DNA from: Parcubacteria group bacterium
GTDB lineage: Bacteria > Patescibacteriota > Minisyncoccia > Moranbacterales > UBA9337
Assembly: GCA_041662245.1 (NCBI GenBank)
Contig: JBAZSW010000003.1
Span: 45,798 to 109,797, forward strand
Length of the DNA: 64,000 nt
Direction: 5' to 3'
A model generated the notes under the pieces. It was not told the DNA's origin. It did not search any database and saw only the letters and a list, made by a program, of their open reading frames with translations. The first letter of the stretch is position 1, and each line of letters starts with the position of its first letter. Position numbers and translations under genes: made by a program. Positions 3,149-55,954 of this stretch are shown here, one piece after another.

Positions 3149-3595
3149 TTATCGTGAAATAAAAGATACTCTTCGTCTATCTTTATCTATTAATTCAAAA
3201 TTTAACCACACAGCTCTAAAAGGAATAATATTTTTTATTTTTTCTGGCCATTCTATTATAATAATATTCTCTTTATTTCCAATCAGTTCCTTCCATCCCA
3301 AATCCAAAATATCTTCACTTTCTACTCGATAAGTGTCAATATGATAGATATTTTTAACTTTATATGAATTCTTCTTTAGGGAATACTTTTTCATCACAAT
3401 AAAAGTCGGGCTAGTTAAAGCTCCTTCTGCGCCTAGAGTTTTCAGAAACCCTTGAGTAAAAGTAGTTTTCCCTGCTCCCAATCCACCTTTCAAACAAATA
3501 ATATCGCCCCCTTTAACATTTTGAGCAAATTCTTTACCCAATTTAACAGTTTCTTGAGTATTTTTTGTAATCACTTCCTTAAAATCTTTAAACAT
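3149..3595 (-). CDS. tsaE: tRNA t6A37 threonylcarbamoyladenosine biosynthesis ATPase TsaE
   Basis: P-loop GGLGAGKTTFTQGF, size 148 aa, YjeE family layout. Confidence 0.8.
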   Translation of the reverse strand: MFKDFKEVITKNTQETVKLGKEFAQNVKGGDIICLKGGLGAGKTTFTQGFLKTLGAEGALTSPTFIVMKKYSLKKNSYKVKNIYHIDTYRVESEDILDLGWKELIGNKENIIIIEWPEKIKNIIPFRAVWLNFELIDKDRRRVSFISR

Positions 3596-3640
3596 ATTAG
3601 CATTTTAGCATATCAATAAAATAACATTAAAAAAAATCCA

Positions 3641-3722
3641 AGTCATCAGTCATCCGCAATAAGCCACCAGAACACTTTTAACTTCGATGATTGATGACTT
3701 ATGACTAATGATTCAGTGACTA
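3641..3722 (+). repeat. copy A of an ~80-bp intergenic element with 12-bp terminal inverted repeats (AGTCATCAGTCA ... TGACTtATGACT)
   Basis: The 20-mer agtcatcagtcatccgcaat (3641-3660) is the exact reverse complement of 29828-29847. The internal tract ttttaacYtcgatga is shared with copy B. Confidence 0.5.
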
Positions 3723-3730
3723 TTCTTTTA

Positions 3731-3773
3731 CTTTATAAACTTTTATAGCTTTATGAACTTTAAAAACTTTGGT
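3731..3773. repeat. tandem AGTTYATAA-type 9-mers (reading on the minus strand) immediately after the comM stop
   Basis: ctttataaacttttatagctttatgaacttt. The same motif family is seen at 7877-7896, 26021-26045 and 49691-49712. Confidence 0.35.
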
Positions 3774-5300
3774 TCACTCATTCTTAAATCTATATTGAAT
3801 ACTTTCTGCAATATGCATCGGGGAAATATTTTTCTCATCAGATAGATCCGCAATAGTACGCGCTATTTTTATAAGACGATAATAAGACCTAGCACTTAAT
3901 CCCATTTTGGTAACTGCATTTTTAAGCAATTCAATTGAATCTGATTTTAGTGGACAAAACTTCTTTATTTCATTAGAGGACATCTCGCTATTAGTTATTT
4001 TTCCTGTCCCAAGAAACCTTTCTTTCTGAATTCCTCGTGCTCTTTCTATTCGTTCTCTTATTTCAATACTACTTTCTCCAGAATTCTCTTCTTGAAGCTT
4101 TTCAAATTTTAACCGAGGAACTTCAATTTGTAAATCTATTCTATCTAAAATTGGTCCTGATATTTTTCTCTGATAATTAGCTACTTGAGAAGGTGAGCAA
4201 GAACACATTTTTTCTGGATCAGTAGCATTGCCACAGGGACAAGGATTCATAGCAGCTACGAGAGTAAAACGAGCTGGAAAATTAAGTGTACCTTTAGCTC
4301 TTGAGACTGTCACTACTCCATCTTCCAAAGGCTGGCGTAAACTTTCCATCACATGTTTAGGAAATTCAGCAAATTCATCCAAAAACAACACTCCTCTATG
4401 AGATAGACTTATTTCTCCAGGCTTAGGATAGCTACCTCCCCCCACTAAAGAAACAGCACTGGCACTATGATGAGGCGATCGAAATGGTCTTTGGGTTATC
4501 AAAGGTTCGCTCTTAGATAAATTTCCCGAAATAGAAAAAATTTTTGTAATTTCTAAAGCTTCTGTAAGTGTTAGTTTGGGAAGAATCGATGCCATAGCTT
4601 TAGCTAATAAAGTTTTTCCACTTCCGGGAGGACCATTCATTATTACATTATGTCCTCCTGCAGCTGCTATTTCTAACGCCCGCTTAGCATGTTCTTGTCC
4701 TTTAATATGAGCCATATCTACCACAAAATCGCTATTTTCAAATAAAGTTTTTTGATTAATCTCAGGAAAATCTTCAATTATCTTTTCTCCAATCAGATGA
4801 GCAACTAATCCATACAAATTAGCAATAGGAATTATCTTGATTCCAACTACCACACTGGCTTCTCTGGCATTTTCCAAGGGAATAAAAATTTGAGAGAAAC
4901 CTTTCTTTTTAGCCATTAAAACTATTGGTAAAACCCCCTGTACCGGTCGAGCCGTTCCATCCAAAGACAATTCTCCAATAAAAAGCTTATTTTTAAAATC
5001 AAAATTTATTTGATTAGAGACCAAAAGAAATCCCAAAGCTATTGGAATATCATAAATAGGACTATTCTTAGGCAAATCTGCGGGAGCTAAATTAACAGTT
5101 ACTCTACCACACTGGTGTGGTGGTTTAAAACCGCTATTTTTTATAGCACTACTCACTCTATCCCTAGATTCTTTAATAGAAGTATCAGGTAGCCCTACAA
5201 TAGTAAAGTTATGCAATCCCTGAGTGAGCGTATCCACTTCCACCTCTACAATTTCACTATCCAATCCTATTGTGGCTGCTGAAAAAACTTTTGAAGACAT
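3774..5300 (-). CDS. comM: YifB/ComM family Mg-chelatase-like AAA+ ATPase
   Basis: N-terminal Lon-like domain, Walker A NGPPGSGKTLLAKA, C-terminal MCM-like region, 508 aa. Confidence 0.85.
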   Translation of the reverse strand: MSSKVFSAATIGLDSEIVEVEVDTLTQGLHNFTIVGLPDTSIKESRDRVSSAIKNSGFKPPHQCGRVTVNLAPADLPKNSPIYDIPIALGFLLVSNQINFDFKNKLFIGELSLDGTARPVQGVLPIVLMAKKKGFSQIFIPLENAREASVVVGIKIIPIANLYGLVAHLIGEKIIEDFPEINQKTLFENSDFVVDMAHIKGQEHAKRALEIAAAGGHNVIMNGPPGSGKTLLAKAMASILPKLTLTEALEITKIFSISGNLSKSEPLITQRPFRSPHHSASAVSLVGGGSYPKPGEISLSHRGVLFLDEFAEFPKHVMESLRQPLEDGVVTVSRAKGTLNFPARFTLVAAMNPCPCGNATDPEKMCSCSPSQVANYQRKISGPILDRIDLQIEVPRLKFEKLQEENSGESSIEIRERIERARGIQKERFLGTGKITNSEMSSNEIKKFCPLKSDSIELLKNAVTKMGLSARSYYRLIKIARTIADLSDEKNISPMHIAESIQYRFKNE

Positions 5301-6117: not shown

Positions 6118-6265
6118 ATTTTTATAATAACTCTTAATTTATCAGATAAATTTAAGGCTACTTTCAATTATCGTTTATATGTCTATACTATCAACTTAAC
6201 CAGATAATGTCTAGCGTTCATTTATTCTAACATATTAACACATCAACATTAAAGTAAAATCTATT

Positions 6266-6321
6266 TGTCATTTCGACCGGATGAATTTATGAATACAAGG
6301 ATTTGTGCAGTCGAAATGACA
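6266..6321. repeat. perfect 12-bp inverted repeat tgtcatttcgac / gtcgaaatgaca around a 32-nt spacer
   Basis: Seen directly in the sequence. It lies ~40 nt 3' of the U32 peptidase stop. No U-tract follows. It contains the recurrent TCATTTCGAC motif in both orientations. Confidence 0.4.
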
Positions 6322-6360
6322 TATTCAAAAAACTTAATAAGTTTACTTGCATCATTCGTA

Positions 6361-10409: not shown

Positions 10410-11183
10410 TTATTGAGCTATTTCACTGATATCCGTTTTAGCAATATTGTCCATACTATGTTTATTAACTTCATCTGATATTATTTTGCCATCTACCATT
10501 TTTATAATTCTTGAAGCAAATTTATATTGATCTTGATCGTGCGTAACCATTAAAATAGTAATATTGAATTTTCTATTTATTTCCTGAAGCAAAGCCAAAA
10601 GGGTATCTCCAGCTTTTTGGTCTAAGTTTCCTGTCGGTTCGTCAGCAATAATAAATTTAGGATTAAGCAAAAGCGAACGGGCTAACGCAATTCTTTGTTG
10701 TTGTCCTCCAGAGAGATCATAAGGACGATAGTCTGCCCATCTACTCATTCCCACCAATTCTATTAATTTAGCAGCTTTTTCTATGCCACTATGAAAGGAC
10801 TCTCCTGCAATAACAGCTGGAATAGCCATATTTTCTATTACCGTTAACGATTTAATCCAGAAAGTCTGTTGAGGAATAAATCCCACCTTCTCATTTCTAA
10901 ATTGAGCTCTCCAATTTTTACTATATGCCCAGATATCTTCATCATCTATAATTATTTTTCCTTCCGTGGGTTCCTCTAAGCCATAAATAGAATGAAGTAA
11001 AGTTGACTTGCCGCAGCCACTAGGGCCGACCAACATCACAAATTCCCCTTCATATATCTTGGCATCAATTCCAAAAAGAACTTGAATATTATTTTCGCCT
11101 ACACGAAAACTTTTTTTTATTCCTTTTATTTCTACGGCTACGTTTTTATTCTCTATTTTTTCCATATTCCTGACGACAACCAT
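10410..11183 (-). CDS. ABC transporter ATP-binding protein (MacB/LolD/FtsE-like)
   Basis: Walker A GPSGCGKST, ABC signature LSGGQQQRIALARSL, Walker B IIADEPT. The start overlaps the giant gene's stop by 31 nt. Confidence 0.85.
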   Translation of the reverse strand: MVVVRNMEKIENKNVAVEIKGIKKSFRVGENNIQVLFGIDAKIYEGEFVMLVGPSGCGKSTLLHSIYGLEEPTEGKIIIDDEDIWAYSKNWRAQFRNEKVGFIPQQTFWIKSLTVIENMAIPAVIAGESFHSGIEKAAKLIELVGMSRWADYRPYDLSGGQQQRIALARSLLLNPKFIIADEPTGNLDQKAGDTLLALLQEINRKFNITILMVTHDQDQYKFASRIIKMVDGKIISDEVNKHSMDNIAKTDISEIAQ

Positions 11184-14100
11184 CCGAATTGTTTAGTTGT
11201 TGTTCCAATTATTATTTCTGCCGCTGATGATTTAGCTCCTTCTACTATTATAGTAGAGACTTTTGAATTTGTCATATTTCCCGCCGCATCAAAAACTTCC
11301 ACCTGATAACTATACATCTGTCCCACTTCCGCAGGGATAGTTATTAAATGATAAGTGTTTAATGGATCCTCTCCTGTAGATTGATCAAATCCTGAAACAG
11401 CAGCCCCTTTAGTATATTTAATTTTTAACGTAGTTGTTTCATTCGTCTCTATCTTAACATACATATTAGCTTGAGCGCTGCTACCTCTTCCTAAAACTTT
11501 TCCGATAGCTCTATTGACTACTATTTCTGGCGGACGAGAATCAGATTTGGTAGTTATCTTCTGCTCCACAGATTCAACTTCAATTCCATTGGCATCTGTT
11601 CCTAAAATAGTTAAGGTATATTCTTTGGCGGGATCCAAACCATTTAACTCTGCGCTGTGTTCAGTAACTCTTTCTTCAGTTAAATAATTATGCGGAGAAG
11701 CTTCATCGGATGATTTAAAATATAAATGAGTAGTAGCAGGAACATTAGTTTTATATTGCACAGATACCGCCGGCAAATCAACATTTTCCACATTCTGTAT
11801 TTGAATATCCGTTGCCATTGGCTTAATCGGAGTAGCAAAACTATATTGATCAGAGTTGAAACTATTTAAATCTCCGTCTATACAAGATACCTGAGCTTGA
11901 TAACTAGTTTCAGCATTCAATCCTATGACTTTCTGAATATGAGCTGAAGCGCCACTAGTTTCCTCAATGGTATTAGAAAGACTTCCTGCTCCATATTTCA
12001 AAGTACAAGTGGCTGAAGTATTAGTTTTCCAAGAAACATAAGCCGAATCAAGCTTTATGTCAGTAACAGTAAATTCTGATACAACTGGAGGTGGCAACGT
12101 AGTAAAATTACCAACTTCCGATGTACCAATATTTCCATCAGGATCGATATATTTCACTTTATAAAAATATTTGGTGTCTGCACTTAAACCATTCACAATT
12201 ACTTCGTGATCTGTCACACTGTCTACTTGACCATTAGTTTCCCCTAATGAAATAGTTTTTCCATATTCTATAAAAGAACTGGCTACACGACTAGTTCCCC
12301 AATTAAAAGTAGCTACAAATGATTGCGTTTTTACTGTTGGCTTTTGAATTAGAGCAGGGGCGGTAGTATATCTACCTGTAGGAATAATAGTAACAATACT
12401 CGAAGCAATTGATAAATTATTAGTATTATCCTTAGCTTTAATATAATAATAATAAGGCTTACTTTCCAATTCAGTATCCACATAAGCTGTTCCTGAAGTT
12501 GTTGCCACACTAGTGTATACTCCTGCTAATTCTGTAGAACGATAAATTACATATCCTTCAAAATTATCACTGCTCGCTCCTACAGGAGGAGTCCATTTAG
12601 TAGCTACACTATATTCTGCATTTTCTCTATCGGAAGTATCAAATATCTGAACATTAACCGGAGCACCAGGAGCAGAAGTATCTGCAGTAAAATCAGCATA
12701 AGCATACAAGCTATAGTCAATATTTCCCGCCTCATCCATGGCTACTACATAAAATCTATTAGATCCTTTTTGAGTAGCAAATGGGCCAGGTCCAGCGAAA
12801 GTAGAAGTTGTTTCGGTAACATTATAAGCATTGGGCAAAGTGTTAACTGCATAATAATATTTGAGCTTAGTTGGCTCACCAATAAATGATAATGGTTGGT
12901 CCCAATCAAAAGCAAATGAATTACCGGTTGAATAAGCAGGGGTTACTGTTAAATTCTCTGGCGGACTTGGGGCACTCGCGCTAAAATAATATTCTTGACT
13001 AATAGGAGCAGAAATATTGCCAGCATTATCCACAACTCTCAAATAAAACCAATTTTTTCCCGACTGATAAGCTCCTGTGGTGTGCATCGCGTTAGGAATA
13101 GCAATTGAAACATCAGTAATATTAGGAATATCAAACCAAGTATCAGCAATGTCTCCACCAGTTCGATATTGAATTTTCTGCACTCCCGAGTGAGCATCCG
13201 AAACATTGTTTTCCCATAAAAAAGAATAATTATCTGCCGCAGTAAATCCCGCTGGGGTGACGGATATATCACTAGGATTATTTGGAGAAGTATTGTCCAA
13301 TCTATAATTAAAAGCATTAAATGATCCAGCCGGTATCATATCAGCATCATCTACAGATTTAATTAAAAGATAATAATTTTGACCAGAAACCATGCTACTG
13401 GCAACATAATTAGTAGTTGTTTGATAAGCACCATCAACAAAAGCATCTGCGCTAGCATTTGTCCCAAAATAAACCCAATAACCTTTAACTCCCGAACCGC
13501 CCACTCCATCGCTAGCTCCCCCCACTACTTCATCAGCAGGCCATTCGAAATATGGACTAGTATATCCATACCAAGAAGCTGTATTAATGGAAGTCACTTT
13601 ATCTACTGCGCTATAAGCACTAACTATAGTTGGATTACTCGGAGCCAAAACATCTTGATAATAATTTATCTTATAATCTGTGACTAGAGGAGAAAAAATT
13701 TGATCACCCGAAAACAAATCTATTTTTACTTGGATATATTCATTAGCTGGACTGACAATATCATAATTATAATGACCCGCACCAAAATCTTTTTCATTGG
13801 AAACTAAATCCCAAGCTGACCAATCGGTTTGGTTATCTGAAGTTCGAGTATAAATATTAACACTTGTTCCTGTTGGTTTTGTATAATTGATATCTAAATT
13901 GGCCCAACGATAAACTGAAAGCAAATCAATCGCCTGCGAAATATAATTCCCTCTTTTTTCAAAGGCTGTTCCGTTGGTTTCAGAACCCACCACATAGCTA
14001 TACAGACCGTCTGGGTATGAATTAGTTCCTGTTCCCACAGTCGACCAAATTCTATTACTCGCACTATCTCCTGCCCCTCCAGTATTTACTTGTCCAGGAA

Positions 14101-17100
14101 AATTGGCAATTGTTTCCCAAGTATTTCCAGAAATATTATAACGATAATAAGCATTGGTATTAAGTCCTCTAGTCAAATACAAATATCCATCTCCGCCATC
14201 AGTCAAAGATGAACCAATTCCAATTGTCGCCGGAGTATTAGCTCTTTGAAGCCAAGTGCCAGCTGTCACATCATAACGCCAGAAAGTAAGTTGACTTTGC
14301 CCTCGAGTGGAATAAATATAGCCATCTTTATAAATAATTTTTGATCCATCTCCTTGGTTCCAATTTACAATCGTGGGAAGTAGAGCCGACCAACGTGATC
14401 CAGCTACCGCCGTAGTATCATAACGCCACCAATTATTACTTCCCGCTGTTCCACGAGTTAAATAAATGTAACGACTACCGTCATAAGTCATACTTGAACC
14501 AGTTCCCGTTTGAAGCGGAATTCTATCAGTAGCAATAACCTCCCAACTATTTGATGAAATTGTATATTTCATAAAATAATTATTAATACTTCCTGTTCTA
14601 GTAGTTCTAATTGCTCCAGGAGTAAGGTAAATCGCTCCTTCATCTTCATTATAAACCATAGCCGAACCAGTAAATATCCCTACTGGAGTTTTGGCCAATT
14701 TCGTAAATTCACCAGTCTGATAATCATATTTTCCAAAAGTATTGTCACTGTTTCCTCTTACTATATAAATATTATTATTTTCATCTTTAGCCAAATTAGT
14801 TCCGGCGTTAAAGCCAAAACTACTTCCACCACCAATATCTGCTGGTCCAAAAAATCCTTTTTGAGGAACTTCCCAGGAATTTTCATCAATATTAAACTTA
14901 TAAAAAGCATTTGAAGCCTCTCCTCTGATTGCATAAATATATCCTCCTGCAGCCTTTAGTGATCCTCCATAACCCACATAAGCTGGAATCATCGGCAATT
15001 CTGTCCAAGTATTAGAAGTCACGCTATATTTAAAGAAATTCTGACGTTGTTTACCGCTTAACATATAAACTGCATCAGTGTCCTCATCGTAAGTTAAACT
15101 ACCTCCGTTATAAATTCCTACTGGGGCTTTCTCCAAAGTTGACCAATGTCCCGTGCCAGTAGAATATTTTGAAAAATAGGGATAATTATTTCCTTGTAAA
15201 GCATAAATTGTGTCATTTCCATCATAAGCGGTATAAGACCCTTCATAAACTCTTTGCCCATCACTTTCATTGGGATTACCAAACTCCGCATTTTCCAAAT
15301 TGCTCCACACATTATTTTGAGTATCATATCGATAAAAAGCATCGTCATTTCCAGGAAGACCATAGATATAGCGGCTACCATCATATTGCAATGATCCTCC
15401 ATAAGTAAATACTTTAGAGGCATTACTTACTGACTCCCAACTATTGCTTCCGATACTATAGCGCCAAAAATCCGATTGGTCAGCTCCTCTTGTGGCATAT
15501 AAATACCCTTCAGGACCAGCTACTAGAAAACTTCCATAATAGACTGTCAGAGGAGCAGGTTGCAAAGTCGTCCAAACATCAGTAGCAATATCATAAGAAT
15601 AAAAAATATTGGAATTATTTCCATTTAAAACATAGATTTTATTACTCGACTCTACATAAGCCATTCTAGATCCATAACGGAATCCGGCTGGAGCATAAGA
15701 CAATCTCTTTTCATTCCAAAAACCATTGATTGAATTTAGTCTAAATGACCCGTCACTTTTAACGCTTACCTTATCCAATGTGCCAGATTGAAAATCTGCT
15801 TCACTAGTTTTCTCTTCTGTTAAATAGGGAGACACTCCTGAATAGTTATAAGTAAAAGCACTCCAAACAGTATCACTTATATTACCATCATTATCTTCAG
15901 TTTTAATTCTAAGATAATAATTACCAGTTTGCATTGCCATGTTAACCAAATATTCTGGATTAACCGTATACGATCCCAAAATTTCTGGATCAGCTCCGCT
16001 ATCAGTCCCAAAATAAACCCAATATCCATCTATTCCAGAATCATTATCAATGGCATCATTCCAAGTGAAATATGGGTGAGCATGTTTATATTCATCTCCA
16101 CTTAGCAAAGTGTCCCCACTAACTCTTTGGGAATAACCATTTATAATGTTTGGATTATTAGGATCATTATCTTCGCTATTATAAGATATTGTAAAATCAT
16201 TAACTGTAGGAGTACTGATTCCATCAGATGAACTTAAAGTAAATTTAACTTGAATATATCGATTTTCTGGCGATTGTATATCCGTTCCACTGAGAGTTTC
16301 CCAACTTGACCAACTATCCCCATCACTGCTAGTTCGTGTTTCGGTAACAATCGAAGTATTAGCTGGAATATTTTGATTAATCGCCAAAGAAGTCCACGAT
16401 GAGACATAAGACAAATCCATTTCCTCACTGATATATGTTCCCGTGGCTAGATAGTTACTGGCTCCTAAAGTATAGCTCCAAACATCTACTAATCCAAATC
16501 CAGGGGTGGCTAAAAAAGAGTTATTACCCATATATTCAAAAGACGCTCCATTATATGGCCCTCTTTCATAAACATATTTTTGATTAGCTGGCAAAAGCCT
16601 CCATGAATTGGTGGCAATTGTATATTCCCATGTTTCATCTTTATAATAACCCGCTATTGCATAAATTTTGCCATTATAATATGCCATATCTGTTCCATAA
16701 CTTTGTGCAAAAGACGTTGAAGTTAATTCAGTCCAATTATTATCTAACACATTATAACGTAAGAAAGCCGTTTCTCCATCTCCGGGCATCATATAAAGAT
16801 TATTTCCATCTGATTCTAGACGACTTCCGATATAAGACATATAATTCGCTCCTCCCGTGATAGAAGCACTGGTCATAGTAGTCCAACTATTGCCAGCAAT
16901 ATTATATCGGTAAAGATTATTGGTTCCATTACCTCGAGTCACATAAATATATCCGTCGCTACTATTATAAGTTGCTGCGCTACCATAACCCAAAGTTCCA
17001 AGTCCTGTGGTGCTAGCTGTGCTCCAAGAATTTCCAGCTACATTATAAATATAAAAAGCGGTAGTGTTGTTCCCCAATGGAATATAAAAGTTACCGTTAT

Positions 17101-18586
17101 AAAAAGTGCCTTTCGTATCATAGCTAAAACTCACTGGCGCATTAGTTAGAGTTGTCCAAGTATTAGTGGTTATATCATAACGATAAAAACCGTTTGATCC
17201 TCCCCTTAAAGCATAGACATAAGCCCCCGCTCCCGTTACTTTATTCCAAATAAAATCACTACCTGTTCCCACCGTAGCCGGCAAATCAGCTGGTCCTACC
17301 CAAGTCCCTGTCGCTCCACTATTAGGGTTAAATTTCCACAAATTATACGTTGCTCCACCTCGAATCGCATAAATAAGATTATCTGTCGGATTAAAAGTCA
17401 AAGAGGACATGTTATTAGTTTGTGGTGAAGTTGCTAGAGTTGTCCAATTATTAGTTGCAATATTATATCTTATGAAAGTATTGGTAGTATTCGAAACTAA
17501 AAAGTAAATACAATTATTATAATAAACTCCTTTTTGCTCACCGCTAAGAGCTACTGGAGAAGCTGTCATTGCTGGAGCTGCCACCCAATTATTGGCTACA
17601 ATATTATAGCGATAAAAAGTTGTCGTTCCTGATCCCCGAGTAATATACATGTAGCCATTATTGCCATATACCATATCAGCTCCACTCGTTAAAGTAGCTG
17701 GAATTGGATTTATTCCATACCACATATTTTCACCAACATCAAATCTCCAAAAATCAGAAAATCCCTGTCCTCTAGTTACAAACATATCTGTTCCATCAAA
17801 TTCAATTGAAGCTCCCGTATAAACAGTATCCAAAAGATCGGGTAATTTAGTCCAAACTCTATCTTCAATATTATATTTATAAAATTCCTTGGAAAAACCT
17901 CCAAAAATAAAATAAATATTCCCTGCGCCATCATAAACTAAATCACAACCATAATGAGTAGCCTGAGGTAAATCTTCTAATATATCCCACTTGTTTTCAG
18001 CTACATTATAACGATAAAAAGATTTATCTGCATAGCCTCTAGTGGCATAAAGATAATTATTTACCATCACTGAAGATGAACCAAAAGAAACAGTGTCTGG
18101 AGTAGGAGCCCAAGTTCGAGCATTCCAAGTTCCATCTGATTTTAATTGAATTGCGTCTTGAGAGCTGGTAGTACTCACATTTTCCAAACTGCCATTTTCC
18201 CATTCTTTTTGAGTAGTTACACTTTTCGATTGCGGAGCACTTAATACACTGGCACTATTAGAAAAAACTACCGCTGCCATTATTATTATTGTTCCTATTC
18301 TAACCGAAGACCACCAAAAAAATTTAAAGAATATCTTTATTAATTTGGCCAGAAAATCAACAAATTTAAAAACTATTTTTCTTGTTCTATATTTTTTACC
18401 CAGGCTCTTATTGTTTTTTAGCTCATATTGAGATAAAAATTCAGTCAATGAACTCGCTCTAGTATTTTTTATTTCAGCAATTTCTTTATTTTTTATTCTT
18501 TTTTTAAATAAAAATGCAAAAAAACCTTTCTTTGAAGAATTCTTTTTAGATCGAATTATTTGTGTTTGTTTTTTGTTTTTTAACAT
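11153..18586 (-). CDS. giant (2477 aa) membrane-anchored surface protein: basic cytoplasmic tail, one TM, many Kelch-type beta-propeller blades, C-terminal FN3-like domains
   Basis: An uninterrupted 7.4-kb ORF. Dozens of F/Y-R-Y-N-x-x-x-N-x-W-T/S-x-L blade motifs. Four C-terminal FN3-like modules (e.g. YKVKYIDPDGNIGTSEVGNFTT). TM segment WWSSVRIGTIIIMAAVVF. Confidence 0.8.
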   Translation of the reverse strand: MLKNKKQTQIIRSKKNSSKKGFFAFLFKKRIKNKEIAEIKNTRASSLTEFLSQYELKNNKSLGKKYRTRKIVFKFVDFLAKLIKIFFKFFWWSSVRIGTIIIMAAVVFSNSASVLSAPQSKSVTTQKEWENGSLENVSTTSSQDAIQLKSDGTWNARTWAPTPDTVSFGSSSVMVNNYLYATRGYADKSFYRYNVAENKWDILEDLPQATHYGCDLVYDGAGNIYFIFGGFSKEFYKYNIEDRVWTKLPDLLDTVYTGASIEFDGTDMFVTRGQGFSDFWRFDVGENMWYGINPIPATLTSGADMVYGNNGYMYITRGSGTTTFYRYNIVANNWVAAPAMTASPVALSGEQKGVYYNNCIYFLVSNTTNTFIRYNIATNNWTTLATSPQTNNMSSLTFNPTDNLIYAIRGGATYNLWKFNPNSGATGTWVGPADLPATVGTGSDFIWNKVTGAGAYVYALRGGSNGFYRYDITTNTWTTLTNAPVSFSYDTKGTFYNGNFYIPLGNNTTAFYIYNVAGNSWSTASTTGLGTLGYGSAATYNSSDGYIYVTRGNGTNNLYRYNIAGNSWTTMTSASITGGANYMSYIGSRLESDGNNLYMMPGDGETAFLRYNVLDNNWTELTSTSFAQSYGTDMAYYNGKIYAIAGYYKDETWEYTIATNSWRLLPANQKYVYERGPYNGASFEYMGNNSFLATPGFGLVDVWSYTLGASNYLATGTYISEEMDLSYVSSWTSLAINQNIPANTSIVTETRTSSDGDSWSSWETLSGTDIQSPENRYIQVKFTLSSSDGISTPTVNDFTISYNSEDNDPNNPNIINGYSQRVSGDTLLSGDEYKHAHPYFTWNDAIDNDSGIDGYWVYFGTDSGADPEILGSYTVNPEYLVNMAMQTGNYYLRIKTEDNDGNISDTVWSAFTYNYSGVSPYLTEEKTSEADFQSGTLDKVSVKSDGSFRLNSINGFWNEKRLSYAPAGFRYGSRMAYVESSNKIYVLNGNNSNIFYSYDIATDVWTTLQPAPLTVYYGSFLVAGPEGYLYATRGADQSDFWRYSIGSNSWESVSNASKVFTYGGSLQYDGSRYIYGLPGNDDAFYRYDTQNNVWSNLENAEFGNPNESDGQRVYEGSYTAYDGNDTIYALQGNNYPYFSKYSTGTGHWSTLEKAPVGIYNGGSLTYDEDTDAVYMLSGKQRQNFFKYSVTSNTWTELPMIPAYVGYGGSLKAAGGYIYAIRGEASNAFYKFNIDENSWEVPQKGFFGPADIGGGSSFGFNAGTNLAKDENNNIYIVRGNSDNTFGKYDYQTGEFTKLAKTPVGIFTGSAMVYNEDEGAIYLTPGAIRTTRTGSINNYFMKYTISSNSWEVIATDRIPLQTGTGSSMTYDGSRYIYLTRGTAGSNNWWRYDTTAVAGSRWSALLPTIVNWNQGDGSKIIYKDGYIYSTRGQSQLTFWRYDVTAGTWLQRANTPATIGIGSSLTDGGDGYLYLTRGLNTNAYYRYNISGNTWETIANFPGQVNTGGAGDSASNRIWSTVGTGTNSYPDGLYSYVVGSETNGTAFEKRGNYISQAIDLLSVYRWANLDINYTKPTGTSVNIYTRTSDNQTDWSAWDLVSNEKDFGAGHYNYDIVSPANEYIQVKIDLFSGDQIFSPLVTDYKINYYQDVLAPSNPTIVSAYSAVDKVTSINTASWYGYTSPYFEWPADEVVGGASDGVGGSGVKGYWVYFGTNASADAFVDGAYQTTTNYVASSMVSGQNYYLLIKSVDDADMIPAGSFNAFNYRLDNTSPNNPSDISVTPAGFTAADNYSFLWENNVSDAHSGVQKIQYRTGGDIADTWFDIPNITDVSIAIPNAMHTTGAYQSGKNWFYLRVVDNAGNISAPISQEYYFSASAPSPPENLTVTPAYSTGNSFAFDWDQPLSFIGEPTKLKYYYAVNTLPNAYNVTETTSTFAGPGPFATQKGSNRFYVVAMDEAGNIDYSLYAYADFTADTSAPGAPVNVQIFDTSDRENAEYSVATKWTPPVGASSDNFEGYVIYRSTELAGVYTSVATTSGTAYVDTELESKPYYYYIKAKDNTNNLSIASSIVTIIPTGRYTTAPALIQKPTVKTQSFVATFNWGTSRVASSFIEYGKTISLGETNGQVDSVTDHEVIVNGLSADTKYFYKVKYIDPDGNIGTSEVGNFTTLPPPVVSEFTVTDIKLDSAYVSWKTNTSATCTLKYGAGSLSNTIEETSGASAHIQKVIGLNAETSYQAQVSCIDGDLNSFNSDQYSFATPIKPMATDIQIQNVENVDLPAVSVQYKTNVPATTHLYFKSSDEASPHNYLTEERVTEHSAELNGLDPAKEYTLTILGTDANGIEVESVEQKITTKSDSRPPEIVVNRAIGKVLGRGSSAQANMYVKIETNETTTLKIKYTKGAAVSGFDQSTGEDPLNTYHLITIPAEVGQMYSYQVEVFDAAGNMTNSKVSTIIVEGAKSSAAEIIIGTTTKQFGWLSSGIWKK

Positions 18587-18628: not shown

Positions 18629-18826
18629 TTAGCTATATAATCGAGACATTTCGCTCACTAATCTTTTCATTTTTTCTACATCATATTTACTATAGATTCT
18701 CCATCCTCGACTATCTCTCCTAGGCGCGCCTATTCTACCTTCTTTTTCCCAACGGAAAATAGTCGACTTATCTCGGTCGATTATCTTAGAAACATCTTTT
18801 ACATAATAAATATCTTCAAATATCAT
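18629..18826 (-). CDS. excisionase/MerR-family helix-turn-helix DNA-binding protein (65 aa from an internal Met)
   Basis: YYVKDVSKIIDRDKSTIFRWEKEGRIGAPRRDSRGWRIYSKYDVEKM matches the HTH_17/Xis-type pattern (..STIYRWIKEG..P..GRWRI....L). Sits 42 nt upstream of the giant gene. Confidence 0.5.
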   Translation of the reverse strand: MIFEDIYYVKDVSKIIDRDKSTIFRWEKEGRIGAPRRDSRGWRIYSKYDVEKMKRLVSEMSRLYS

Positions 18827-18988
18827 CTTTTTAAACTTAGGTACCCATATAAGTATATCCACTATAGGTACTATATGTATGCTAGCCAAATAAAAAAGCG
18901 AACTGCCGGAAATCGGCACTTCACCCTACTACATGCTTATTATAGCACACAATCACTACTCAGTCAAAAAACATCTTCTATCCCCAAG

Positions 18989-19008: not shown

Positions 19009-19268
19009 CACCCTTTAAAATTAAAAGTTTTTGCCACTATTCTAGCCACTCTTACTGTTGTAAGGTTGCCCGCAATGCTAGTTTTTACTATCATTTTCGA
19101 TATATCCACATTTTTTAAGTTATTTTTAATTAAAAGATTATCCATATTAACTAATAACTTTTCACTTAAATTTAGATCTCCCTCCCATTTTAATTCATCT
19201 ACTATCTCCTTTTCTCTCATTAAGTATAATATTGCCTTATTTTCTCTTATTTCTAATGTAATATTCAT
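18999..19268 (-). CDS. degenerate, truncated TsaB/YeaZ-like protein (N-terminal domain only, 89 aa)
   Basis: Co-linear with the TsaB N-terminus: LSEKLLVNMDNLL ~ HAEHLLPMIDELL, and SIAGNLTTVRVARIVAKTF ~ GPGSFTGLRIGVATAKGL. Confidence 0.35.
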   Translation of the reverse strand: MNITLEIRENKAILYLMREKEIVDELKWEGDLNLSEKLLVNMDNLLIKNNLKNVDISKMIVKTSIAGNLTTVRVARIVAKTFNFKGCVN

Positions 19269-25595: not shown

Positions 25596-25657
25596 TGATA
25601 AATTATTAATTTTTATCTACAACTTTTCGTTAATTATAACACAGAAAATTAACAAAT

Positions 25658-25690
25658 AAAAATCAACTAATTAATTAGTTGATTTTTATT
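25658..25690. terminator. perfect 30-bp palindrome AAAAATCAACTAATT|AATTAGTTGATTTTT; bidirectional intrinsic terminator
   Basis: Stem with flanking A-run and T-run. Lies between the small ORF (25734-25868) and the HK promoter region. Confidence 0.5.
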
Positions 25691-25733
25691 TATTTTATTT
25701 TAATCTATATAATATAATTTTATTGATTTTATA

Positions 25734-25868: not shown

Positions 25869-26076
25869 ATTTTTTTATTTTTGTTTTTAAATTATTGTAT
25901 AGGATGATGTCTAAAGAGTGTTTTTATTTAACTCATTTTATAGAACCAATCGACCATTTGGCTTAAAAAACAAAAAATGAATCCTCACCCCGAGAATTCA
26001 CCCTATCTTTATAAGGTCTTTATTTAACCTTACAAACTCATTATACACCATTTTAACTTAAAAGTCAAACCATTTT

Positions 26077-29147: not shown

Positions 29148-29720
29148 CTATCTTTTTCCTATTTCTTTTAGAGCAAATTTTATTTTTTCTTCGACACTCT
29201 CAATTTCATTGGGGATCAACTTTAGCGCTTCCCTAGCTTGAAAAGCGTTATATCCCATAACTATTAGGGCGTCCATGGTTTCACTATCGGAAATGCTATC
29301 CCTTCTATCTTCTAATGATATATCCGCTACTTTATTTTGTAATTCTAAGATAACTCTTTCGGCTGTTTTTTTTCCTACTCCTGAAACTTTAGTGAGAAGA
29401 CTAGGATTATTATTTAAAATTGCGGTTCTGATTGAAACTGGATCAGCTATTGATAGAATTCCCATAGCTGCCTTAGGGCCTATTCCGGAAATAGATATTA
29501 ATAATTCAAACATTTCCTTTTCTTCAATACTTACAAATCCATATAAAGCCAAAATATCTTCTCTAACGTAGGTATAAATGAAAAAAGAACCTTCTCCCCA
29601 AGTGGCTATTTTTCCCAGTGTAAAATCAGTCAAAAAAACTTTATAACCTACCCCCGCTACATCCACGATGATCCATCTGTCCTTTGAATATTCAATTTTT
29701 CCAGTTAATTTTGCAATCAT
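29148..29720 (-). CDS. ruvA: Holliday junction branch-migration protein RuvA
   Basis: MIAKLTGKI...VDVAGVGYKV...GIGPKAA...VSGVGKKTAERVILEL. Confidence 0.85.
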   Translation of the reverse strand: MIAKLTGKIEYSKDRWIIVDVAGVGYKVFLTDFTLGKIATWGEGSFFIYTYVREDILALYGFVSIEEKEMFELLISISGIGPKAAMGILSIADPVSIRTAILNNNPSLLTKVSGVGKKTAERVILELQNKVADISLEDRRDSISDSETMDALIVMGYNAFQAREALKLIPNEIESVEEKIKFALKEIGKR

Positions 29721-29768
29721 ATTATGAAAAGTTATAGAGTTCTTAACGTTTTAAAGCTTACAAAGTAA

Positions 29769-29847
29769 TGATTTAGTCATCAGTCAAAAGTCATTTGTCA
29801 TCGAGGTTAAAATATATTTGATGACTGATTGCGGATGACTGATGACT
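29769..29847 (-). repeat. copy B of the ~80-bp element with 12-bp TIRs (agtcatcagtca ... tgactgatgact); orientation inverted relative to copy A
   Basis: 29828-29847 is the reverse complement of 3641-3660. Perfect 12-bp terminal inverted repeats at 29776-29787 and 29836-29847. Confidence 0.5.
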
Positions 29848-29918
29848 TTAAGTATTTCAATGTTAAATTGTTTTAATGCTAATATGTTGAAATGTTCTAT
29901 GTCTATCTTATCATTCTC

Positions 29919-29947
29919 TTGCCAAAAAATCCACTCTATGATACAAA
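29919..29947 (+). promoter_or_regulatory. candidate rpsT promoter: TTGCCA-N17(with TGn)-TACAAA
   Basis: Hexamers found by eye, 72 nt upstream of the rpsT ATG. Confidence 0.3.
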
Positions 29948-30018
29948 TAGTTAAGTAACTAAATAAGTTTAAATGATAATTCGCTGTTGGATTTTTCAAT
30001 TGCGAAAAAAGATAAAAT

Positions 30019-30285
30019 ATGCCAATCAAAGATTCAGCCAAAAAGTATATGCGAGTTACTGATCGCAAAACTTTAAAAAACAAGAAAACCAAAGGAACTT
30101 ATCGTAGTGCTATAAAAAAAACTCGCGAAGCTATCAATGCTAAAGATTTTAAAACAGCCTCTGAATTTTTAAAAAAATCAATCAAAGCTTTAGATAAAGC
30201 AGTTCAAAAGAAAGTTCTTAAAAAAAATACTGGTGCACGTTATAAATCCAGATTGAATAAGAGCGTAAAAAATATAGCCAAATAA
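30019..30285 (+). CDS. rpsT: 30S ribosomal protein S20
   Basis: MPIKDSAKKYMRVTDRKTLKNKK...TGARYKSRLNK: S20 pattern. Confidence 0.85.
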   Translation: MPIKDSAKKYMRVTDRKTLKNKKTKGTYRSAIKKTREAINAKDFKTASEFLKKSIKALDKAVQKKVLKKNTGARYKSRLNKSVKNIAK

Positions 30286-30291
30286 AAATTT

Positions 30292-30321
30292 AAAAAAGTG
30301 GTCCTGTCGACCACTTTTTTA
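30292..30321. terminator. intrinsic terminator AAAGTGGTC-ctgtc-GACCACTTTTTT; shared by convergent rpsT and holA
   Basis: 9-bp GC-containing stem, 5-nt loop, T6 tract. 7 nt after the rpsT stop and 14 nt after the holA stop. Confidence 0.7.
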
Positions 30322-44816: not shown

Positions 44817-44927
44817 ATTTTTTATTTTTTTCGCTCGTCATTTCGAGCTTATCCACTAATTATATAATTTATGACACTCCTTTAGGATTTTAACTGTACA
44901 ATTTTAAAAAAATACCCGAATAAAAAG

Positions 44928-52122: not shown

Positions 52123-52332
52123 CGTTATATCATTTCGACCAAATAAATTATTGTACTTAGTAATTTAGAAGTAGAAAAATTTCCAGTTGTATAAAACCCC
52201 GCTAGCCTCTATTTATTTAATATTCAACAAATCTCTCAAGTCCATATTTACTTCGCTCGAGATGATAGCCATAAACAACTCCTATTTAGAGGTTGTATTA
52301 AAATAATAATTAAAACACCTAGAACAATTAAA

Positions 52333-54474: not shown

Positions 54475-55628
54475 ATAAATATTTGTTCTGTTTCATCCAG
54501 CGCCTTTTTTATAAGATCCTTTAACTTCAATGTTTTTTCTGCTATTTTAATTTCAGCTAAATTAGCCTTTGTTTCTGGATGCTTTGGGACAAAACGAGTA
54601 CAGCAATCCTCATGTGGCAATATAGATGTTTCATAAGTACCTATTTCTTTGGCTTTTTTTATAACTTCTATCTTATCAAATCCAATAATTGGTCTTAAAA
54701 TTGGCATATTTATTGCCTCATCAGTAACTACGATATTTTCTAGTGTTTGTGAGGCTACCTGAGATAGTACTTCTCCGGTGCAAAGCGCTAAATATTTTTT
54801 TTCTTGAGATAATTCTTGAGCTATTTTCATCATCAATCTCCTATAGAATAAAACTCTTAATTTTTCCGGACAATTTATAACAATCTGTTGCTGAACATTA
54901 GCAAAGGGAACCATAAAAACACTAGCCTTTCCTTGAAATTTAGATAGTGTCTTGGCTAAAGCCATTACCTTTTCATTAGAAGCTGGGCTTGTATAAGGCA
55001 AAGAATGAAAGTGGACAAAACTTACCTGTGCCCCTCTTTTTAAAAGATAATAAGCTGCTACAGGAGAATCAATTCCTCCAGAAAGTAATGCTAATATTTT
55101 TCCGCCAGTTCCCACAGGCAATCCTCCGGATCCAGAAAATTTTTCCACATAAATAAACGCCTTATTATTAGACACTTCTACAAAACATTCCAATTGAGCA
55201 TTTTTTAGTTTAACTTTTTTATTTGTTTTTTTAACAATAAATGCACCTATTTCTTTGTTTATTTCCGCACTTGTTAAAGAAAAGTTTTTATCTGATCTAG
55301 AAGCGGTTATTCTAAAGTTATCAAATTTTTTATCTTTTAACATTTCCCAACAAACATCTTTAAAACTCTCCATATTTTGAGCGGACTCCTTGGCGAAAAC
55401 AAAGTTAGCTATTCCAAAAACCTCCCTCAGAATTAAAAACTTTTTAATTTTTTTCTCATTATCAATTTCTATCAAAATTCTCCCTGCCAGCTTTCTTACT
55501 TGACCGAAATTCTCTGCCCCCACCTCTTTAGTTAATTTATTTTTAATATTTTCAATTAACTTTCTTTCAAAATAGTTTCTGTTCTTTCCCTTTAGGGCTA
55601 TTTCGTCATAGTGACATATTATAATCAT
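54471..55628 (-). CDS. thiI: tRNA 4-thiouridine synthase ThiI (THUMP + PP-loop)
   Basis: N-terminal THUMP domain. PP-loop LLSGGIDSPVAAY. Confidence 0.8.
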   Translation of the reverse strand: MIIICHYDEIALKGKNRNYFERKLIENIKNKLTKEVGAENFGQVRKLAGRILIEIDNEKKIKKFLILREVFGIANFVFAKESAQNMESFKDVCWEMLKDKKFDNFRITASRSDKNFSLTSAEINKEIGAFIVKKTNKKVKLKNAQLECFVEVSNNKAFIYVEKFSGSGGLPVGTGGKILALLSGGIDSPVAAYYLLKRGAQVSFVHFHSLPYTSPASNEKVMALAKTLSKFQGKASVFMVPFANVQQQIVINCPEKLRVLFYRRLMMKIAQELSQEKKYLALCTGEVLSQVASQTLENIVVTDEAINMPILRPIIGFDKIEVIKKAKEIGTYETSILPHEDCCTRFVPKHPETKANLAEIKIAEKTLKLKDLIKKALDETEQIFI

Positions 55629-55954
55629 ATTCTTGCATTTTAACCTTTTAGCATATTAATACGTTAACACTTTAGCATACTAACATTAAAACAAAAAGCA
55701 TAAAAACAACATACTGTACCAACTAACATCCATAATTACCCTTCCACTATTTATCCTCTCGACTGGATAAGCATTTGTACTCAAATATTTAGTAATGGAG
55801 AAATTTAACAACAAAATAAAGATTTCTACCAAAAGAAAGTCCTCGGCTCCACTGTCGTTATACCCGAAATGACAAATTGCTTTTTATATTTCCAAAATAT
55901 TAAATTTTTATATTTATACCCATTCGTATTTTATAGAAAATTTATAGAGAATTC

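Follow-up and report, generated by a model that had tools for sequence, protein, structure and literature searches.

Two intergenic spacers of a 64,000-nucleotide stretch of Parcubacteria group bacterium DNA (assembly GCA_041662245.1, contig JBAZSW010000003.1, positions 45,798 to 109,797; the whole stretch is called the window here) each hold one copy of an imperfect, non-coding palindrome of about 75-85 bp. Copy A lies between tsaE and comM and copy B between ruvA and rpsT (Table 1). The flanking genes are those named in the original prediction, which had been made from the letters of the window without database searches: TsaE and RuvA carry the expected Pfam domains, and the ComM-type Mg-chelatase/YifB and ribosomal protein S20 were recognized by Pfam. 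TsaE is 63-67% and RuvA up to 88% identical to Moranbacteria/Moraniibacteriota proteins, which places the window among Moranbacteria.

The two palindromes contain the 20-mer AGTCATCAGTCATCCGCAAT as an exact pair, 3641-3660 (+) and its reverse complement at 29828-29847 (-), as had been noticed at the outset. No third site was found in the window with up to 3 mismatches allowed, and two matches were reached in 0 of 100 dinucleotide-preserving shuffles of the window. Both copies also contain, again as predicted, the internal tract TTTTAACYTCGATGA, and its 15-nt spacing is equal in the two; taken alone the tract was not significant, since 18 of 100 shuffles gave 2 matches. We therefore gave the weight for the relatedness of A and B to their co-linearity. 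Placed in the same orientation, the copies align without a gap over about 82 nt, with the shared layout AAGTCATCAGTCATCCGCAAT - 15 variable nt - TTTTAACYTCGATGA - 3 nt - ATGACTTNTGACTNATGA, and the similarity runs about 50 nt past the end of the 20-mer into promoter-like sequence. The 12-nt inverted terminus of the original prediction stood as a match (AGTCATCAGTCA / TGACTGATGACT, perfect in copy B and 11/12 in copy A), and such terminal inverted repeats are a hallmark of miniature inverted-repeat transposable elements (MITEs); the coordinates given for the left arm, however, were off by one, the true termini of copy B being 29775-29786 and 29836-29847. Inverted-repeat detection extended the arms to 28 nt at 75% complementarity. 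Likewise, the opposite orientations ascribed to the two copies are true of the + strand, but relative to the gene that each precedes (tsaE and rpsT) both copies have the same orientation. The feature is real, beyond chance, and a member of a repeat family.

Table 1. Coordinates in the window of the two palindromes, their parts, their flanking modules and the neighboring genes.
Feature	Position	Strand	Basis or remark
Copy A, heptamer palindrome	3640..3722	-	nhmmer E=9e-19
Copy A, well-preserved arm with the 20-mer	3641-3661		+ strand reading
Copy A, core (AAGCCACCAGAACAC TTTTAACTTC)	3662-3685		+ strand reading
Copy A, partly decayed opposite arm, five heptamers (GATGATT GATGACT TATGACT AATGATT CAGTGACT)	3686-3721		+ strand reading
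Copy A, upstream module: four AT-rich boxes TTTTTAAAGT / TCATAAAGC / TATAAAAGT / TTATAAAGT, period ~9-10 nt	3723..3770	-	beyond comM stop at 3774
Copy A, downstream module: GGA-T8, -35-like TTAATG 8 nt past the palindrome, extended -10-like TGCTAAAAT	3596..3639	-	consensus resemblance only
Copy B, full-length palindrome near the family consensus	29775..29848	+	nhmmer E=1e-20
Copy B, 5' arm (AGTCATC AGTCAAA AGTCATT TGTCATC)	29775-29802	+	
Copy B, loop	29803-29819	+	
Copy B, 3' arm (GATGACT GATTGCG GATGACT GATGACT)	29820-29847	+	
Copy B, upstream module: AAAAGTTATAGAG / TTCTTAACG / TTTTAAAGC / TTACAAAGT boxes	29727..29774	+	orthologous module in L145, L149
Copy B, downstream module: TAAGTATT, then TCAATGTTAAATTGTTTTAATGCTAATATG...	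29849..29915	+	sequence comparison
TsaE	3149-3595	-	Pfam
ComM-type Mg-chelatase/YifB ATPase	3774-5300	-	Pfam
RuvA	29148-29720	-	Pfam
Ribosomal protein S20 (rpsT)	30019-30285	+	Pfam

We built an nhmmer profile from 10 copies and searched 306 kb of related sequence together with the window. The profile found about 18 distinct copies in the related sequence and, in the window, A and B only. Some 15 copies beyond A and B were located in related Moranbacteria/Parcubacteria genomes and on metagenome contigs, which removes the doubt raised at the start that there might be just two copies with non-conserved flanks. A metagenome scan with AGTCATCAGTCATCYGCAAT gave 14 loci, about 10 of them AT-rich copies of the kind seen in the Candidate Phyla Radiation (CPR), three of these on one 597-kb contig. 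Copy density is 2 in the 64 kb of the window, 4 in 20 kb of L145 (loci outside the window carry L numbers) and at least 4 on the 597-kb contig. The 20-mer had 0 matches among the viral contigs scanned, which gives no hint that the element came from a phage. What the copies have in common across genomes includes parts that are not heptamers, namely the internal loop AAA/RGA and ATTGCRG, and the loop motif TTTTAACYT(C/T)GATGA is common to A, B, L125 and L132. We consider it very probable that the element is a dispersed repeat family, and as far as our searches reach, it appears to be confined to Moranbacteria-like Patescibacteria.

A structural heptamer-palindrome pattern was scanned over one genome per species and returned at least 119 loci with AGTCATN inverted arrays. 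Among the matches listed, most are cyanobacterial (including Nostoc and Microcoleus), and Bacteroidota, Gemmataceae and other Planctomycetota, Nitrospirota, Actinomycetota and Patescibacteria are also represented, so that inverted heptamer arrays occur in at least six phyla (loci L002-L120). The true homologues among the matches listed are L028 and L029, both from Candidatus Moraniibacteriota metagenome-assembled genomes, which have the non-heptamer positions of the window element.

The arms of the palindrome are not plain terminal inverted repeats, but tandem 7-nt units, AGTCATC in one arm and GATGACT in the other, with only 2-4 units in each. The number of units is fixed in most family members; in comparison with copy B, L125 has one AGTCAAA unit more, and in L124 the units form a long direct array. 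We refer to the strand ending in ...ATTGCGGATGACTGATGACTT (...ATTGCRGATGACTGATGACU in RNA form) as the sense strand. All full copies have a common predicted fold, in which a 12-bp outer stem is followed by a symmetric 3x3 internal loop, two pairs, a C/U mismatch and an inner stem of 10-16 bp, closed by a terminal loop that varies in sequence and length. The internal loop places AAA opposite GGA or AGA (AAA/GGA in copy B); a K-turn was considered for it and dropped, because K-turns are asymmetric and this loop is a symmetric 3x3. The folding suggested in the original prediction gave a hairpin well below shuffles for copy B (-31.3 kcal/mol, z=-5.4, with a second z=-6.2) and moderately below them for copy A, whose 5' arm is decayed in the sense direction (-22.9 kcal/mol, z=-2.2, with a second z=-2.7). 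When both strands were folded, the sense strand gave the more stable RNA in 13 of 15 copies; the corresponding values for copy A are -21.8 kcal/mol for sense and -18.9 kcal/mol for antisense.

The palindrome usually stands in a spacer of fixed order: stop codon, TAAAG boxes, palindrome, promoter-like AATGYT / TGCTAAAAT boxes, next gene. Read in the sense direction, the upstream side has 3-4 boxes of the form T(T/C)WTAAAG(T/C) with a period of about 9-10 nt, and the spacing TAAAG(T/C)-N8-AGTCA is exact in A, B, L125/L135, L139, L145c and the flipped L029. The last TAAAGT of copy A accordingly ends exactly 8 nt ahead of the first AGTCA; in copy B it is CAAAGT (29761-29766) that ends 8 nt ahead of the palindrome, and the module adjoins the start of ruvA at 29720 on the other strand. 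On the downstream side, 8-9 nt after the palindrome, stand T(T/C)AATG and ATGCTAAWAT, which resemble a -35 and an extended -10 element. In copy A the TGCTAAAAT box at 3610-3602 ends 6 nt before the tsaE ATG at 3595, and the same TGCTAAAAT-N6-ATG is present in L138. Because the extended -10-like box ends so close to the ATG, the tsaE mRNA appears to be leaderless, an arrangement conserved between the window (3596-3612, -) and L138 (9975-10003); no Shine-Dalgarno sequence was seen at the tsaE start. Copy B has a -35-like TCAATG 8 nt past the palindrome and an extended -10-like TGCTAATAT at 29877-29885. From about 29906 onwards follows an rpsT upstream block that is kept in all relatives with or without the element. 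This block (ATCATTCTCTTGCCAAAAAATCCACTCTATGATACAAATAGTTAAGTAA, window ~29906-29975, +) is almost invariant in six genomes with RuvA 78-85% identical, and is the probable site of the real rpsT promoter (TTGCCA-N17-TACAAA) as well as of a conserved leader.

Palindrome and boxes behave as modules. Two L145 copies have 48 identical nt of the downstream part in common, the whole three-part unit is inverted in L145b (the femAB-SPOUT spacer), and in L029 the palindrome interior alone is inverted, which recombination between the perfect outer repeats may have produced. The boxes are also present without a palindrome (L141, L149) and beside a different palindrome (L138); therefore, they are general spacer building blocks and not private to the element. 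More broadly, spacers of these genomes contain arrays of the boxes TTTATAAAG, TTTTAATGYT and ATGCTAAAAT with a period of about 9-10 nt, with or without palindromes, for example at 3583-3636 and 55626-55695 in the window and in many related spacers. Clustered promoters, DNA curvature or protein binding could each explain such arrays.

Since synteny is conserved among the relatives, positionally equivalent spacers could be read side by side. The comM to tsaE spacer holds the element in the window, a more symmetric variant in L135, an unrelated GC-richer palindrome (TGTCATTCCGAC...GTCGAGATGACA) in L138-140, and nothing in L141/142, where a bare 71-nt spacer remains. Between ruvA and rpsT there is a full copy in the window, a diverged copy in L145, a copy without exactly the outer 3' arm in L149, remnants of the other palindrome family in L143, and no element in L144, L146 and L148. 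L145, in turn, has three extra copies, and at none of their sites does the window or another relative have the element; its ruvA-femAB spacer measures about 225 nt with the element, against 4-20 nt in relatives. We found that sequence likeness does not follow position. L145c and L129 match copy B at 91% identity, and its positional counterparts reach 72% and 68%; an L145 copy at 13549-13621 is 91% identical to copy B despite a different site and genome. Copy A is 80% identical to L125, a pyruvate-kinase-downstream copy from another genome, as against 70% to its counterpart L135c. As the best matches of A and B lie at non-orthologous sites, simple site-by-site vertical descent does not account for the family, which on these comparisons would be dispersed, homogenized or held to a consensus. 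The comparison of relatives thus records gain or loss, truncation and inversion of copies at intergenic sites. In line with this, the REP/BOX-like reading offered in the original prediction (REP, repetitive extragenic palindromic) agrees with what we found, namely more copies in related genomes, patchiness at positionally equivalent sites and flanks partly common to copies.

The palindrome that replaces the element in L138-140 belongs to a second, unrelated family, which there fills the same comM-tsaE site as the heptamer element in the window. Its termini are TGTCATTYCGAC...GTCGARATGACA, and some copies have a GC-rich core (CTCGCCTCGC...GCGAAGCGGGCCGG). In the window it occupies 6263-6324 and ~52126-52265, with half-sites near 44836 and 55864; in relatives it occurs in L138/L139 at 9784 and ~18811-18850 and in the L143 ruvA/rpsT spacer. 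Downstream of pyruvate kinase, L135 has an AGTCATC palindrome (19164-19238), whereas L138/L139 have AGATTTA x4 followed by inverted TAAATCT (~18380-18500): the same architecture at the same site, with a different heptamer unit.

Every copy of the element is intergenic, and none lies in an open reading frame (ORF). In about 12 of 15 independent contexts the order is stop codon, element, start codon of a co-directional gene pair, so that the element follows a stop codon and has the bias toward gene 3' ends that marks REP sequences and REPINs; three contexts, copy B included, are divergent, and none is convergent. In 16 of 18 copies the sense strand and the downstream gene point the same way, and in 2 they are opposed (about 13 versus 2 when shared sites are discounted). 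The downstream genes themselves are unrelated: tsaE, rpsT, a dksA-like gene, femAB and tRNA-Ser. We also classified 104 loci of the wider AGTCATN class among the matches listed and found 63 in co-directional, 35 in convergent and 6 in divergent spacers, with 0 in ORFs, against a background of 62% co-directional, 19% convergent and 19% divergent spacers. By our own calculation on these 104 loci, the wider class is enriched in convergent and depleted in divergent spacers (chi-square ~21). This 3'-end bias of the wider class, a pattern characteristic of REP-like repeats, could reflect a function at 3' ends or simply tolerated insertion sites.

We propose that the element is a dispersed REP/BOX/Correia-like palindrome and, at the same time, a transcript hairpin that punctuates adjacent transcription units; as a combined statement, we rate this as standing about level between right and wrong. 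The specific punctuation role is put forward tentatively, and we lean toward doubting it. In outline, the element would spread, or be homogenized, as a selfish or neutral repeat. Transcription arriving from its upstream side would form an interrupted hairpin of about 28-30 bp, and this hairpin may act as punctuation between transcription units by terminating or attenuating read-through, by stabilizing the upstream RNA, or as an RNase III site, each of which would insulate the promoter downstream. A simple transcript hairpin is most likely the active form. The orientation bias, the greater stability of the sense RNA and the position between a stop codon and promoter-like boxes all speak for an RNA hairpin, as does the excess of G-U over A-C when cells are counted (41 versus 21 on the sense strand in a 13-copy alignment).

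Several observations weigh against this proposal. The G-U bias is gone when columns are counted (14 versus 13). In the same 13-copy alignment 90.6% of cells are paired, and both sides changed in only 2 of 29 pairs, which 479 of 500 shuffles matched. Copy A in part, L131, L132a and L149 have lost one arm; hence, the hairpin is not strictly maintained. An intrinsic-terminator scan found none at the palindrome of copy A or copy B, and canonical terminators with a GC stem and T-run do exist in the genome, for example at 30291-30321. A U8 run stands behind only 3 copies (A, L129 and L131), and no T-tract enrichment was found behind the 119 listed cross-phylum heptamer hairpins, where 6 T or more occur in 4.2%, the same share as in the control. 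The three divergent contexts, copy B among them, have no upstream gene to terminate, and in L028 a separate terminator already stands just ahead of the element. A Rho-independent terminator was accordingly rejected as an identity for the element itself; apart from the negative scan, copy B has no U-tract, and in copy A the U8 follows after a 3-nt spacer.

If the copies moved as a true MITE or REPIN, a transposase elsewhere in the genome (DDE or HUH/Y1 RAYT-like) would mobilize them, and any effect on expression would be incidental. Terminal inverted repeats, filled and empty sites among close relatives, best matches at non-orthologous sites in other genomes, both orientations and decayed copies are all as expected of such an element, and an asymmetric internal loop that is conserved could tell one strand from the other, as it does in the hairpins of REP and IS200. 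However, no consistent target-site duplication, for which the original prediction had proposed to look, was found in the flanks of about 15 copies, and the L145 ruvA-femAB site shares only an uninformative TAA. Filled and empty sites do exist, but the extra DNA is larger than the palindrome and includes AT-rich boxes, with flanks too diverged for exact ends; in the cleanest pair, at L145, the inserted unit of about 225 nt takes in the flanking box arrays and is not bounded by the inverted repeats. The MITE-like reading of the original prediction is not supported by these sites in the strict sense of the term. Neither a GTAG nor a CGTC tag, as used to recognize REP sequences and REPINs, lies beside either end of A, B or their relatives, whose arms begin AGTCAT. 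We saw no transposase among the called genes of the loci read (the 64-kb window and pieces of at most 20 kb of relatives), which cover a small part of each genome, and the density of 2 copies in 64 kb is low. We regard transposase-driven movement as unlikely.

The heptamers might instead be protein-binding sites that control the downstream promoter, in which case the palindrome would be a multimeric operator or upstream-activator array rather than a hairpin. In A, B, L139, L145a, L145c and L145d the 20-mer arm ends 8-9 nt before the -35-like T(T/C)AATG, a placement that would suit an operator, as would the strong orientation toward the downstream gene. The promoter-proximal arm is also the intact one where the other has decayed (A, L131, L132a and L121), but this sample is biased, since those copies were found with that very arm as the search pattern. 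Set against these points, the genes downstream are not related to one another, a repeat of 7 bp does not stay in phase with the helix, and the box spacing is not kept in L125, L129, L028 and L133. Moreover, L145b reverses the whole cassette and L029 the palindrome interior, L149 lacks exactly the promoter-proximal outer arm, and these heptamers are spread over at least six phyla, where most of them lie at the 3' ends of genes. We find an operator distinctly unlikely. Likeness to CtsR, CIRCE, LexA, DnaA-box and parS sites was dismissed separately, because the element fits them neither in spacing nor in sequence and stands ahead of unrelated genes.

An independent small RNA gene would explain the copies in divergent spacers. 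Here, TATAAAG(T/C) 8 nt upstream would serve as the -10 element, transcription would start at the first AGTCA, and the hairpin and U-run would complete an RNA of about 80-90 nt. The exact upstream spacing in at least six copies, including the flipped L029, is consistent with this, as is the U8 run where it occurs. Most copies, however, have no U-tract, the loop is constant neither in sequence nor in length (with about 45 extra nt in L133), TAAAG boxes stand without a palindrome in L141 and in the L149 ruvA-femAB spacer, and in L138 this box stands ahead of a palindrome from another family. Nor is there covariation or an Rfam match: Rfam 15 gave 0 matches at the gathering score across the window, and at E<=10 nothing meaningful at either locus. 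We judge a small RNA gene very unlikely. As for the structured RNA of the original prediction, a conserved form of it is not supported, with compensatory change in 2 pairs only, no more than in shuffles, and no Rfam family. Sub-threshold Rfam look-alikes of C/D-box snoRNA and miRNA at copy B were set aside as artefacts of the CUGAUGA in the heptamers and of the hairpin shape, and matches in the vicinity of copy A as weak chance hits. Finally, a functionless by-product of heptamer slippage and hairpin-templated repair, arising repeatedly in AT-rich spacers so that copies resemble each other in the unit alone, is hardly credible: although heptamers are, in the background part of one paper (PMC4679880), the commonest long simple tandem repeats in bacteria with slippage proposed as their source, and although a palindrome of the unit AGATTTA stands at the same site in L138/L139 and direct arrays with the variant unit CGCAATC exist (L124), the copies from different genomes share the non-heptamer parts and the loop motif, those of the window are co-linear without a gap, and the orientation is biased.

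The STRR heptamer repeats of heterocystous cyanobacteria are one example of the class to which the element belongs, its arms being head-to-tail 7-nt units of the form (A/G)GT(C/T)AT(C/T) on both sides. Others are the TAACTGA direct heptamer repeats of Beggiatoaceae, Cyanobacteria and Bacteroidetes (MacGregor 2015, PMC4679880) and the GAC(C/T)AAT repeats upstream of Nostoc recO (bioRxiv 10.1101/2022.06.06.494920). AGTCATC is one position off the reverse complement of TAACTGA read as AGTTATC (6/7 match), and it is the C-variant of AGTCATT, which is GACTAAT in another register. We know of no established function for the TAACTGA, GAC(C/T)AAT or STRR repeats. Like STRR and TAACTGA repeats, the Moranbacteria element is intergenic and near gene ends or starts. 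Unlike the published heptamer cases, which are mainly direct arrays of variable length, it is a fixed imperfect palindrome with 2-4 units per arm, conserved non-heptamer positions and a family-specific loop. Our literature search found no published description of such repeats in Patescibacteria.

Among palindromic repeats, the REP/BIME/REPIN sequences of Proteobacteria are short, dispersed, extragenic and imperfect; they lie at gene 3' ends in mosaic spacers and seldom in divergent ones, and termination, mRNA stabilization and protein binding have been proposed as their roles (PMC3116915, PMC2817692, PMC3733652). The Moranbacteria element resembles them as a dispersed extragenic palindrome at gene 3' ends in mosaic spacers whose copies within one genome are more like each other than like their positional counterparts, and differs in being longer (75-85 nt), AT-rich and of much lower copy density, with tandem-heptamer arms and no tag. 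Correia/NEMIS elements of Neisseria and BOX/RUP elements of Streptococcus are small non-autonomous modular repeats with inverted termini that lie beside genes, carry promoter-like boxes and, once transcribed, fold into long hairpins. Those of the Correia type, with inverted repeats of 26 bp and a duplicated TA, are substrates of RNase III and able to end transcription. Inverted termini, position beside genes, promoter-like boxes, a predicted transcript hairpin and modularity are all found in the Moranbacteria element too. In contrast, it has no sequence similarity to any of these elements, the 26-bp inverted repeats and TA duplication of Correia elements were not seen in it, and the promoter-like boxes of Moranbacteria spacers also occur without the palindrome. 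The element is a kind of object already familiar, a small dispersed palindromic repeat, and it overturns nothing; the lineage, the fixed heptamer-palindrome design and the box-flanked setting are new.

Other features of the window and its relatives were recorded along the way. The window has 31.7% GC and nearly all its genes on one strand, and a tRNA/tmRNA scan of its 64 kb found none. A look-up of the exact rpsT protein returned no record, and a 5.8-kb Logan contig proved identical to the window. A conserved TTGACTTTT...TGGTGTATAAT promoter, followed by a hairpin GGGTGAATTCTC..GGGTGAGGATTC and a T-run ahead of a 44-amino-acid (aa) ORF, is found at ~25975-26070 (-) in the window, at ~13840-13960 in L144 and at the equivalent places in L145 and L146; we regard the window locus, which has no Rfam match, as a candidate small RNA or attenuator. 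At 25651-25694, in a 481-nt spacer, there is a 22+22-nt inverted repeat without a spacer between its halves and with 95% complementarity (AACAAATAAAAATCAACTAATT / AATTAGTTGATTTTTATTTATT). The (-) strand at 11153-18586 encodes a 2477-aa ORF with internal repeats of about 135-141 nt (families D1, D2 and D12); in the orthologue from L138-140 (2474-2478 aa), Pfam gives faint matches to Kelch, beta-propeller and fn3.

With regard to the wider meaning, the AGTCAT(C/T) palindromes might form one cross-phylum class with a shared cause, of which the Moranbacteria element would be a fixed, streamlined derivative duplicated together with promoter-like boxes, although we think this improbable. The shared cause could be a conserved factor that recognizes or generates the 7-nt unit, a horizontally spreading element or, alternatively, convergent selection for a hairpin whose arms have stop codons in every reading frame. 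If this proposal is true, the element would be a portable cassette that closes one transcription unit and opens the following one, a picture suggested by the insertion between ruvA and femAB in L145. The heptamer class, known from cyanobacteria, Beggiatoaceae and Bacteroidetes, is in any case widened here by several phyla and given a measurable 3'-end bias. CPR genomes are tiny and compact, and next to nothing is known of what marks the boundaries of a transcription unit in them. A repeat that sits at such boundaries, turns over among relatives and is oriented with transcription offers a concrete handle on that question.

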